Origin: Escherichia phage ECO07P1
Sequence record: OP172784
Length of the DNA: 64,000 nucleotides
Strand: one strand, 5' to 3'
Within the stretch, counting starts at the first letter, position 1. Each line of letters starts with the position of its first letter. Position numbers and translations under genes: made by a program. Positions 60,806 to 61,637 of the stretch are shown one piece after another. The notes under the pieces were generated by a model. That model searched no databases and was not told the origin of the DNA. It saw only the letters and a program-made list of their open reading frames with translations.

Positions 60806-60878
60806 TGGGAATTAGCCAAGTTGGTAAGGCACTGGATTTTGATTCCAGGATGCAAAGGTTCGAGTCCTTTATTCCCAG
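60806..60878 (+). tRNA. tRNA-Gln (anticodon UUG)
   Basis: Hand-folded cloverleaf: acceptor TGGGAAT/ATTCCCA, anticodon stem CTGGA/TCCAG with loop TTTTGAT, T-arm AAAGG-TTCGAGT-CCTTT. Confidence 0.8.
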
Positions 60879-60879
60879 C

Positions 60880-60966
60880 GCGAGAATGGTCAAATTGGTA
60901 AAGGCACAGCACTTAAAATGCTGCGGAATGATTTCCTTGTGGGTTCGAGTCCCACTTCTCGCACCA
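60880..60966 (+). tRNA. tRNA-Leu (anticodon UAA), class II with long variable arm
   Basis: Acceptor GCGAGAA/TTCTCGC, anticodon loop CTTAAAA, long variable arm, T-loop TTCGAGT, 3' CCA encoded. Confidence 0.8.
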
Positions 60967-60971
60967 AATTT

Positions 60972-61045
60972 GCGGATATCGTATAATGGCATTACCTCAG
61001 ACTTCCAATCTGATGATGTGAGTTCGATTCTCATTATCCGCTCCA
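60972..61045 (+). tRNA. tRNA-Gly (anticodon UCC)
   Basis: Acceptor GCGGATA/TATCCGC, anticodon stem TCAGA/TCTGA with loop CTTCCAA, T-loop TTCGATT, CCA encoded. Confidence 0.8.
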
Positions 61046-61055
61046 ATTTAATTTA

Positions 61056-61130
61056 CTCCGTGTAGCTCAGTTTGGTAGAGCGTCTGCTTTGGGAGCAGAA
61101 TGTCGCAGGTTCAAATCCTGCCGCGGAGAC
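61056..61130 (+). tRNA. tRNA-Pro (anticodon UGG)
   Basis: Acceptor CTCCGTG/CGCGGAG, anticodon stem TCTGC/GCAGA with loop TTTGGGA, T-loop TTCAAAT. Confidence 0.8.
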
Positions 61131-61131
61131 T

Positions 61132-61221
61132 GGAGGCGTGGCAGAGTGGTTTAATGCACCGGTCTTGAAAACCGGCAGTCGCTCCGGCGACTCATAGGTT
61201 CAAATCCTATCGCCTCCGCCA
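61132..61221 (+). tRNA. tRNA-Ser (anticodon UGA), class II
   Basis: Acceptor GGAGGCG/CGCCTCC, anticodon stem CCGGT/ACCGG with loop CTTGAAA, long variable arm, CCA encoded. Confidence 0.8.
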
Positions 61222-61226
61222 GTTTT

Positions 61227-61302
61227 GCTGATTTAGCTTAGTAGGTAGAGCAACTCACTTGTAATGAGAAGGTCGGCGGTTCGATTCCGTCAATCAGCAC
61301 CA
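61227..61302 (+). tRNA. tRNA-Thr (anticodon UGU)
   Basis: Acceptor GCTGATT/AATCAGC, anticodon loop CTTGTAA, T-loop TTCGATT, CCA encoded. Confidence 0.8.
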
Positions 61303-61303
61303 A

Positions 61304-61378
61304 GGCCCTGTAGCTGGAAGGTTCAAGCAAGCGACTCATAATCGCCAGATGGTGGTTCAATTCCACCCAGGGCCACCA
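61304..61378 (+). tRNA. tRNA with CAU anticodon (Ile via lysidine modification, or Met)
   Basis: Acceptor GGCCCTG/CAGGGCC, anticodon loop CTCATAA, T-loop TTCAATT, CCA encoded; the T4 equivalent is recalled as annotated Ile. Confidence 0.75.
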
Positions 61379-61391
61379 AATTAAGAATTAA

Positions 61392-61478
61392 GGGGAGTTA
61401 TCCCGTAGAGGTAGCGGTGTGGACTGTAAATCCATTGTCATTGCGACTCGGGTGGTTCGACTCCATCACTCCCCACCA
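61392..61478 (+). tRNA. tRNA-Tyr (anticodon GUA), class II
   Basis: Acceptor GGGGAGT/ACTCCCC, anticodon stem GTGGA/TCCAT with loop CTGTAAA, 15-nt variable arm as expected for bacterial-type tRNA-Tyr, T-loop TTCGACT, CCA encoded. Confidence 0.7.
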
Positions 61479-61482
61479 ATTT

Positions 61483-61557
61483 GGATGTGTAGCTCAATGG
61501 CAGAGCGATCGCCTGTTAAGCGATTGGTTATAGGTTCGAATCCTATCACGTCCGCCA
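61483..61557 (+). tRNA. tRNA-Asn (anticodon GUU)
   Basis: Acceptor GGATGTG/CACGTCC (one G-U), anticodon stem ATCGC/GCGAT with loop CTGTTAA, T-loop TTCGAAT, CCA encoded. Confidence 0.7.
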
Positions 61558-61561
61558 AATC

Positions 61562-61637
61562 CGAGGCATAGCTCAGAAGGAAGAGCAAGGACCTTCTAAG
61601 TCCTAGGTCGTAGGTTCGATCCCTACTGCCTCGACCA
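61562..61637 (+). tRNA. tRNA-Arg (anticodon UCU)
   Basis: Acceptor CGAGGCA/TGCCTCG, anticodon stem AGGAC/GTCCT with loop CTTCTAA, T-loop TTCGATC, CCA encoded. Confidence 0.8.

Follow-up and report, generated by a model that had tools for sequence, protein, structure and literature searches.

A ten-gene tRNA cluster with tRNA-Tyr and tRNA-Asn genes in Escherichia phage ECO07P1

Results

The window analysed here is a stretch of 64,000 nucleotides from Escherichia phage ECO07P1 (OP172784). ARAGORN, run on the whole 64 kb, finds exactly ten tRNA genes, all on the plus strand at 60806–61637, and no further tRNA gene outside this interval in the window. The spacers between the genes are 0–13 nt long. 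All ten genes exceed the gathering threshold of the Rfam tRNA model (RF00005, 29 bits), and nine of them, all but tRNA-Tyr, score 59–74 bits with E-values of 1e-11 to 1e-15. Such a cluster of ten genes is far beyond chance. A sequence-only reading of this DNA had folded ten cloverleaves by hand, and the ARAGORN calls reproduce their coordinates, order, and anticodons.

The first gene, tRNA-Gln(UUG) (60806–60879), is 65/74 identical to that of T4, and its anticodon stem carries paired changes on both strands. It does not encode CCA and abuts, with 0 nt of spacing, the class II tRNA-Leu(UAA) gene (60880–60966), which is identical to that of T4 (87/87). There follow the nearly identical tRNA-Gly(UCC) (60972–61045, 73/74), tRNA-Pro(UGG) (61056–61130, 62/75, CCA not encoded), the class II tRNA-Ser(UGA) (61132–61221), which is identical to T4 except that CCA is encoded here and not in T4, and tRNA-Thr(UGU) (61227–61302), again nearly identical to T4 (72/76). 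The last four genes are a tRNA with a CAU anticodon (61304–61378), the class II tRNA-Tyr(GUA) (61392–61478), tRNA-Asn(GUU) with discriminator G73 (61483–61557, 74.1 bits in Rfam), and a T2-type tRNA-Arg(UCU) (61562–61637). All are found by both ARAGORN and Rfam. The sequence-only reading had assigned eight of the ten genes to the T4 set, and T4 does have these eight tRNAs in the same order. The correspondence holds by isoacceptor and anticodon. It does not hold as orthology for the CAU and Arg genes, which match T4 tRNA-Ile and tRNA-Arg at only 47/75 and 49/76 positions and are not close orthologues of them. Identity to T4 is 83–100% in the flanks and in six of the genes.

The same reading had noticed a MotA-type middle promoter just upstream of the cluster, and a pattern match (TGCTTTA, 12 nt, TATTAT at 60712–60736) recovers it as the homologue of T4 PtRNA (60709–60743, plus strand). 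The MotA box, ATATGCTTTA, at 60709–60718, is followed by a 12-nt spacer and then by TGn and the −10 hexamer TATTAT at 60731–60736. The sequence matches that of T4 exactly over the MotA box, spacer, and −10 hexamer, and the alignment is free of gaps down to tRNA-Gln. The start site of T4 PtRNA, given as 72593 in Table 1 of PMC2988021, is 63 nt upstream of T4 tRNA-Gln, and we infer that transcription here would start at A60743. The ORF at 60421–60708, immediately upstream, has the same length as T4 trna.2 (288 nt) and belongs to phrog_2023, of unknown function; the end of its coding sequence falls within the T4-aligned stretch.

Downstream of tRNA-Arg, on the same strand, lies an ORF of 116 aa (61654–62004; phrog_3355, function unknown), which is missing from T4 and has homologues in the corresponding position in T2, SP1, and ime09. 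It is followed by homologues of the T4 stable RNA genes rnaD (species 2; 62004–62120, 105/118 identical) and rnaC (species 1, with a tRNA-like 3′ part; 62127–62265, 136/139 identical), and by an intrinsic terminator closing the operon (62316–62349), with a 10-bp GC-rich stem and then a T run. This terminator alone was kept from the consensus scan because it is conserved in T4; sigma-70 promoter-like sites occur at chance level in that scan (7, with 7.1 expected). Pfam searches with ORFs of the operon and its flanks gave nothing useful, and the 116-aa ORF had no match. The upstream 170 nt and the downstream rnaD, rnaC, and terminator region align to T4 without rearrangement. Judged from these homologous flanks, the cluster occupies the position of a T-even tRNA operon, between the trna.2/internal-protein genes and rnaD–rnaC, and it shares with T4 its genomic position, orientation, PtRNA promoter, terminator, rnaD, and rnaC.

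The main difference from T4 lies near the end of the cluster. T4 has the order Ile-segB-Arg, while here it is CAU-Tyr-Asn-Arg, so that segB fills the place of Tyr and Asn in T4. Only these two genes, where the sequence-only reading had put them, lie between the CAU and Arg genes, and no segB homologue was found in the window by tblastn with T4 SegB as query. This arrangement is already known: Brok-Volchanskaya et al. (2008, PMC2330249) published it for T2L, RB1, and RB3, which also lack segB and have CAU (called ‘Met’), Tyr, Asn, and Arg genes followed by a 351-nt ORF. In those phages, the preferred SegB recognition site is inside tRNA-Asn, and the same is seen here. The 27-bp site, GGTTCGAATCCTATCACGTCCGCCAAA, is at 61533–61559 (plus strand), at the 3′ end of tRNA-Asn, and the same 27-mer is present in T2. 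It differs from the site in tRNA-Ser at positions 6, 16, 18, 26, and 27, matching PMC2330249, which also describes the SegB-driven exclusion of the Met/Tyr/Asn/Arg region.

The CAU-Tyr-Asn-Arg block is found with at least 80% query coverage in 377 phage records, compared with 126 for segB. The block is shared by hundreds of sequenced Tequatroviruses, among them sb2, SP1, IME340, and G3F6, and its 334 bp are 100% identical in sb2. For the Asn gene, T2, RB6, Shfl2, and others carry an exact copy, and 316 records hold it at 99% identity or more. In T2, an ORF stands in the position taken by tRNA-Thr in this phage and in T4, giving nine tRNAs rather than ten; apart from this, nothing distinguishes the present cluster from its T2-type relatives. 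Other variants of the locus are also seen, with an extra tRNA-His and an HNH endonuclease in slur14 and an extra 474-nt ORF downstream in ime09 and others. We consider it very probable that the cluster is an ordinary tRNA operon of T4-like coliphages (Tequatrovirus), in the T2-type form without segB.

The CAU tRNA is labelled Met by ARAGORN and in GenBank records. The best E. coli matches listed for it are annotated as tRNA-Ile, at 81.6% identity. The 17-nt anticodon arm, AGCGACUCAUAAUCGCC, is identical to that of an E. coli tRNA-Ile(CAU), and the GGCCC/GGGCC acceptor stem is shared with that tRNA as well. C4-G69 and C5-G68, which are reportedly determinants for recognition of tRNA-Ile2 by TilS (Ikeuchi et al. 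2005), can both be read from the sequence. The gene thus resembles E. coli tRNA-Ile2 of the ileX/ileY type in the anticodon arm, acceptor stem, C4-G69, C5-G68, and A73. It is identical to it at 62/76 positions overall, and the phage D arm is unusual (GCUG GAAGGUUC AAGC). Unlike T4 tRNA-Ile, it encodes CCA. Most likely, then, this is a tRNA of the Ile2 type, which would be modified to lysidine and read AUA.

Of the ten genes, tRNA-Tyr scores lowest against the covariance model. In the first Rfam pass, it appeared only as a sub-threshold match to tRNA-Sec, a model of the same clan that masked RF00005; a search with the gene by itself gives 35.7 bits over model positions 1–71 (E = 1.3e-6). A sequence identical to it is marked ‘tRNA-Pseudo-GTA’ in SP1 (MT682709) and is unannotated in ime09, and the label raises the question of whether the cluster consists of nine working tRNAs and a decaying pseudogene. 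The low score, compared with 59–74 bits for the others, would fit such a reading, as would the minimum free energy fold, which is a cloverleaf for Asn, CAU, and Arg but not for Tyr (z = −0.9), and a C-C mismatch in the D stem if the canonical register is assumed. The score deficit, however, is traced to a 2-nt insertion after U8-A9, placed there by Infernal itself. The connector between the acceptor and D stems is 4 nt long (UAUC), and it is 4–5 nt in all 12 phage homologues; the canonical 2-nt connector (U8, N9), present in E. coli tyrU, is absent here. The expanded connector is a peculiarity of the whole family and not a defect of this copy.

The 12 homologues come from Tequatrovirus, Karamvirus, Vequintavirus, Certrevirus, Phapecoctavirus, Felixounavirus, T5-like, Klebsiella T4-like, and Enterococcus phages. 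A MAFFT alignment of the genes was dropped, as it placed the length difference at the 5′ end and misaligned the acceptor stems. Pairs were therefore counted by a structure-aware script that chooses the 5′ strand of the D stem by best pairing, and Infernal independently gives the same D-stem register for the gene in the window. In this register, all four stems are perfectly paired (252/252 stem positions), with compensatory changes in 13 of the 21 pairs, two of these in the D stem. The canonical-register D stem (UCCC/GCGG) was rejected since only 1–3 of its 4 pairs form in the homologues. Single-sequence folding was judged uninformative for Tyr, given that a cloverleaf comes out of both the comparative parse and Infernal. 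This pairing pattern points to structural selection on tRNA-Tyr. Broken stems and unconserved pairing, the marks of a pseudogene, are not seen.

The structural parse also shows a GUA anticodon, a long variable arm, G1-C72, and an A73 discriminator, which are identity elements of bacterial TyrRS. The variable region is 15 nt, UGUCAUUGCGACUCG, so that the earlier assignment to class II with a 15-nt variable arm stands. Homologues from the T5 family are functional in vivo (PMC11555353), and a plasmid copy with 93% identity is annotated tRNA-Tyr by PGAP. ARAGORN and Infernal both keep the gene, and its anticodon was never called differently; GenBank records that use tRNAscan-SE differ on Tyr only, with Pseudo-GTA in SP1 and Tyr in others, and the gene is annotated tRNA-Tyr(gta) in sb2, P8, and many more records. 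Taken together, this makes a decaying tRNA-Tyr extremely improbable.

Phage-type tRNA-Tyr genes with 2–3 extra connector nucleotides are found in rV5-like, FelixO1-like, and T5-like phages and on E. coli plasmids, and identity is 78–96% across at least seven unrelated phage lineages. The type is present on 273 E. coli plasmids, of which the one examined looks phage-plasmid-like, and it had no match on any of the E. coli chromosomes searched. For Asn, E. coli gave only partial matches, of less than 80% identity and to other tRNAs. With identities of only 65% to tyrU and 62% to asnT as well, recent capture of the two genes from the host was rejected.

Discussion

The proposed working of the operon follows that of T4. 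The ten tRNA genes, the small ORF, and stable RNAs D and C would be transcribed as one unit from the MotA/AsiA-dependent middle promoter at 60709–60743, together with read-through from upstream, and transcription would end at about 62316–62349. By analogy with T4 biology, the precursor would be matured by host enzymes, through RNase P, 3′ trimming, and addition of CCA to Gln and Pro, and the products would be modified by TilS, forming lysidine on the CAU tRNA, and by Tgt, forming queuosine on Tyr and Asn. The mature tRNAs would add decoding capacity for A/U-ending and A/T-rich codons, which are used far more by the phage than by the host.

The codon comparison proposed in the sequence-only reading bears this out for Tyr and Asn, whose codons are both about 1.6-fold enriched in phage genes, so that tRNA-Tyr(GUA) and tRNA-Asn(GUU) may serve UAY and AAY. 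By heuristic ORF calls and against a sample of only 42 E. coli genes, Asn codons amount to 58 per 1000 (38 in the sample) and Tyr codons to 42 (26). AAT is the most over-represented codon (+28 per 1000) and TAT the sixth (+18), and the eight other tRNAs each have a cognate codon that is enriched 1.6–8.6-fold. T4 presumably has much the same codon usage, though it lacks the Tyr and Asn tRNAs. For this reason, and because the T4 tRNA region is non-essential, the supply benefit would be modest or conditional.

Work on T5-family tRNAs raises another possible function. Azam et al. (2024, PMC11555353) found that a T5-family tRNA-Tyr acts in translation and rescues phages from the depletion of host tRNA-Tyr by retron-Eco7. 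The AriB nuclease of PARIS cuts E. coli tRNA-Asn at U36AAUC|C41 and tRNA-Thr(UGU) at UAAUC|A41, and T5 variants of tRNA-Asn and tRNA-Thr relieve PARIS (PMC12409363). Tyr and Asn, with Thr, might then be kept in T-even phages mainly as counter-defence, with codon matching secondary. The T5-family tRNA-Tyr is of the same phage-type family as that in the window: the two are about 84% identical and agree in the 15-nt variable arm, the T arm, and the expanded connector. At the AriB positions, the phage Asn reads UAAGCG and the phage Thr UAAUGA, whereas the motifs cut by AriB are present in E. coli asnT and thrU. Tyr and Asn are also the most host-divergent of the tRNAs compared (65% and 62% to tyrU and asnT, against 83–84% for Thr and Gly), and the Tyr type occurs on plasmids and on no E. 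coli chromosome. Another Tequatrovirus adds tRNA-His(GUG), which has G34-U35 in common with Tyr and Asn.

However, overexpressed E. coli tRNA-Tyr also rescued phages from retron-Eco7 (PMC11555353), so quantity and not resistance sufficed, and this cannot be told apart from supply. The anticodon loops of Tyr and Asn are identical to those of the host, the phage lacks a tRNA-Lys(UUU), the prime AriB target, and codon enrichment accounts for the same genes. T5 belongs to a different phage family with a different tRNA neighbourhood, and an anti-retron role in T-even phages would follow by analogy. We regard counter-defence as the main reason for keeping these genes as a tentative possibility, with the balance somewhat against it. 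A stronger form would hold that the phage-type tRNA-Tyr circulates horizontally as a ‘mobile’ tRNA, that its odd architecture and the G39/G40 changes in Asn and Thr might be selected because they escape or titrate tRNA-Tyr-targeting immunity, and that the Tyr/Asn/His set of T-even phages is a counter-defence and not a codon-supply module. This seems to us unlikely.

The polymorphism of the locus, with segB in T4, an ORF in place of Thr in T2, His and HNH in slur14, and the 474-nt ORF in ime09, could also mean that Tyr and Asn are nearly neutral passengers, present because of the traffic of SegB and other homing endonucleases and of mosaic recombination in a hypervariable region. SegB does exclude the cassette in crosses, and the T4 tRNA region is described as not essential (PMC2330249). 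On the other hand, the Asn gene recurs at 99% identity or more in 316 records, and the stem pairing of Tyr is fully kept across phage lineages by compensatory changes, a pattern that demands purifying selection on function. Database records with the cassette also outnumber those with segB about threefold (377 and 126). We therefore think passenger status very unlikely. In the favoured reading, the CAU-Tyr-Asn-Arg genes are an accessory cassette, allelic to Ile-segB-Arg of T4. Because the Asn gene holds the preferred SegB site, the cassette would be cut and replaced in cells co-infected by a segB-positive phage, and tRNA-Asn may thus identify the present phage as a recipient susceptible to SegB homing.

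Given the 2008 publication and the hundreds of deposited Tequatrovirus genomes, the cluster carries little weight as a discovery. It is of use for annotation: the ‘pseudo’ or missing calls for tRNA-Tyr in some records are artefacts that stem from its unusual, though conserved, connector, and the gene called tRNA-Met in most records is almost certainly, from its sequence features, tRNA-Ile2. The spread of the phage-type tRNA-Tyr across phage families and the changes in the AriB motifs of Asn and Thr offer modest leads in the debate over codon supply and counter-defence as the function of phage tRNAs.

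Results

ARAGORN called ten tRNA genes in the entire 64-kb window, all on the + strand at 60806–61637 and no others, in the order Gln(UUG), Leu(UAA), Gly(UCC), Pro(UGG), Ser(UGA), Thr(UGU), CAU, Tyr(GUA), Asn(GUU), and Arg(UCU). Coordinates, order, and anticodons, including those of Tyr and Asn, all match the sequence-only reading, and the cluster is confirmed, far beyond chance. The intergenic spacers are 0–13 nt, and the CCA end is encoded in all genes except Gln and Pro (8/10). Nine genes score 59–74 bits against the Rfam tRNA model. In the first Rfam search, tRNA-Tyr was visible only as a sub-threshold tRNA-Sec match because overlapping matches of the same clan are collapsed; searched alone, the gene gives an end-to-end RF00005 match of 35.7 bits (gathering score 29). 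The CAU tRNA has an odd D arm, GCUG-GAAGGUUC-AAGC (61313–61328), in which position 14 is G instead of A and G13 is mismatched with A22; this tRNA nonetheless scores 59.9 bits.

The MotA-type middle promoter noticed just upstream of the cluster appears real. It consists of a MotA box, ATATGCTTTA (60709–60718), a 12-nt spacer, and TGT-TATTAT, with the −10 element at 60731–60736, and fits the published consensus, (a/t)(a/t)(a/t)TGCTTtA at 12 ± 1 bp from the −10 element (PMC2988021). The pattern by itself carries little weight: the window has 8 matches, and 2.6 are expected. T4 has the identical sequence, however, over the MotA box, the spacer, and the −10 hexamer, and the alignment runs without gaps as far as tRNA-Gln. 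The mapped middle promoters of T4 include PtRNA, with its start at 72593 (PMC2988021), 63 nt upstream of tRNA-Gln, which would place the start in the window at A60743. A core of some 45 nt in this promoter, GGTAAAT..ATGCTTTAAGAATTATTTGTTATTATTAA[C/T]TCAT, occurs as two direct copies 59.6 kb apart, one at 1066–1112 before a gene-31-like ORF and the other at 60699–60745 before the tRNA operon; they are the counterparts of T4 P31 (start 131540) and PtRNA.

The region has matches in 1,077 phage records, nearly all of them T4-like coliphages, with a top identity of about 97.5%; the window therefore belongs to a Tequatrovirus genome, in reverse orientation to the T4 reference. The homologous T4 locus reads Gln-Leu-Gly-Pro-Ser-Thr-Ile, a 666-bp segB, Arg, rnaD, and rnaC, so the first seven genes and Arg do have their T4 counterparts, by anticodon, in the same order, and Tyr and Asn do lie between the CAU and Arg genes, where T4 carries segB. 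The left-half genes are closest to T4 in a gene-by-gene comparison: Leu is 87/87 identical, as is Ser when counted along the T4 gene, followed by Gly (73/74), Thr (72/76), Gln (65/74), and Pro (62/75); in Gln, the two strands of the anticodon stem have changed in pairs. The CAU gene is identical to T4 Ile at only 47/75 positions and Arg at only 49/76. Thus, CAU-Tyr-Asn-Arg is a cassette distinct from T4 Ile-segB-Arg, and we reject a right half made of T4 genes with two insertions. The earlier reading was correct in both observation and interpretation.

This arrangement is a T-even phage tRNA operon of the T2 type, already known and common. The tRNA regions of phages T2L, RB1, and RB3, sequenced by Brok-Volchanskaya et al. 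(2008), all lack segB and carry tRNA-‘Met’, Tyr, Asn, and Arg with additional ORFs (PMC2330249). No SegB homologue was found in the 64-kb window by tblastn with T4 SegB. The predicted preferred SegB site, the 27-mer GGTTCGAATCCTATCACGTCCGCCAAA, lies in tRNA-Asn at 61533–61559 and is also present in a T2 genome; compared with the corresponding Ser sequence, it is changed at positions 6, 16, 18, 26, and 27, the same five differences listed in PMC2330249. In the phage collection, 377 records cover at least 80% of the 334-bp CAU-Tyr-Asn-Arg block, and 126 cover T4 segB to that extent; Shigella phage sb2 has the block at 100% identity, and the Asn gene has at least 99% identity in 316 records, T2 and RB6 among them. 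T2 has the same Met-Tyr-Asn-Arg-ORF block, but a 402-nt ORF stands where tRNA-Thr would be (T2 locus L017, 1015–1416). The tRNA locus is a variation hotspot; in phage slur14 (L020, 1–1420), Asn and Arg are separated by an extra tRNA-His(GUG), and a gene for an HNH endonuclease immediately precedes Leu. Tyr, Asn, and His, the accessory tRNAs seen, all have G34-U35 anticodons.

Downstream, a 116-aa ORF (61654–62004; phrog_3355, no Pfam match) separates tRNA-Arg from the rnaD homologue, whereas T4 lacks it and has a single nucleotide there; the ORF is also present in T2, SP1, ime09, and slur14. The homologues of the stable RNAs D (62004–62120; 105/118 identical to T4 rnaD) and C (62127–62265; 136/139 identical to rnaC) match no Rfam family, even at E up to 1, and are followed by an intrinsic terminator conserved in T4 (about 62316–62349). 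On both sides of the operon stand four small ORFs (59226–59510, 59571–59879, 59950–60174, and 62434–62997) with near-identical N-termini (MKTFKEFINEAA, MKTFKEFINEAA, MKTCKKFIVEAK, and MKTYAEFLTEAAK, respectively), similar to the T4 internal-protein capsid-targeting sequence. Three of the four match PHROG families annotated ‘internal head/virion protein’, and the remaining one matches the unannotated phrog_2280.

The CAU tRNA (61304–61378) is labelled Met by ARAGORN and most GenBank records. Among the matches listed from 5,423 genomes, its top E. coli matches are annotated tRNA-Ile (81.6% identity), and it has the entire 17-nt anticodon arm and the GGCCC/GGGCC acceptor in common with an E. coli tRNA-Ile(CAU). 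The acceptor contains C4-G69 and C5-G68, which are TilS determinants. Its likeness to elongator or initiator tRNA-Met appears much weaker. The best reading is a tRNA-Ile2 that decodes AUA, putatively of the lysidine type, which fits the 5.7-fold enrichment of AUA in phage ORFs.

The sequence of tRNA-Tyr (61392–61478), which has the 15-nt variable arm described earlier, is annotated as tRNA-Tyr in sb2, G3F6, T2, and many others, but an identical sequence is ‘tRNA-Pseudo-GTA’ in SP1 and unannotated in ime09. In the Infernal alignment, two inserted nucleotides follow U8-A9, giving a 4-nt connector, UAUC (61399–61402), ahead of the D arm CCGU-AGAGGUA-GCGG; the canonical connector between acceptor and D-stem has two nucleotides. 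This expansion accounts for the low scores against covariance models and explains why some GenBank records flag the gene as ‘pseudo’ or omit it. In 12 diverse homologues from at least seven phage lineages, 252/252 stem positions are paired, 13 of the 21 pairs show compensatory double-sided changes, including D-stems CUGU/GCAG and UCGU/GCGA, and the connector is always 4–5 nt, whereas the canonical D-stem register pairs only 1–3 of four positions. Given the full pairing and compensatory changes, Tyr is a conserved tRNA under structural constraint and not a pseudogene. The gene has homologues in 1,523 phage records, far outside the T-even phages: Vequintavirus (95.6% identity), Certrevirus (92%), Karamvirus (91%), Felixounavirus (87%), Phapecoctavirus (86%), T5-like Demerecviridae (74–84%), Klebsiella T4-likes (80%), and Enterococcus Schiekvirus (78%). 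The identity to host genes is 65% for Tyr (tyrU) and 62% for Asn (asnT). No Tyr-type match was found on E. coli chromosomes, but 273 plasmids in 269 E. coli genomes carry the phage type at 90–94% identity. One, the 109.6-kb NZ_AP028872.1 (L019), looks like a phage-plasmid, with an Asn-Tyr-Thr-Ser cluster at 3921–4471 and the PGAP label tRNA-Tyr; the cluster adjoins an ATP-dependent DNA ligase and an integrase.

Discussion

What is the function of these tRNAs? They would supply decoding for codons over-represented in phage genes. In 79 heuristic ORFs of the window (19,708 codons), compared with 42 annotated E. coli K-12 genes (14,790), AAT is the most over-represented codon (+28 per 1000) and TAT the sixth (+18 per 1000). 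Asn codons amount to 58 vs 38 per 1000 and Tyr codons to 42 vs 26, and figures on the late-gene strand are similar or higher. For each of the other eight tRNAs, the cognate A-ending codon is enriched 1.6–8.6-fold. This enrichment supports the classical supply explanation; however, T4 gets by with neither Tyr nor Asn, and the region is dispensable (PMC2330249).

Counter-defence may be the role instead, and is a live rival. Retron-Eco7 depletes host tRNA-Tyr, and a T5-family tRNA-Tyr rescues phages from it, but overexpressed E. coli tRNA-Tyr rescued them too (PMC11555353). PARIS AriB cuts E. coli tRNA-Asn(GUU) at U36AAUC|C41 and tRNA-Thr(UGU) at UAAUC|A41 (PMC12409363). The corresponding positions read UAAGCG in Asn of the window (gene 61483–61557; 61513–61524) and UAAUGA in Thr (gene 61227–61302; 61258–61269), so the phage Asn and Thr are possibly cleavage-resistant variants. 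Against a counter-defence role, the anticodon loops of the phage Tyr and Asn are the same as those of the host. The leads that remain are the expanded connector, conserved in the phage-type tRNA-Tyr, the spread of this tRNA across phage families, and the changes in Asn and Thr by which these might evade nucleases.
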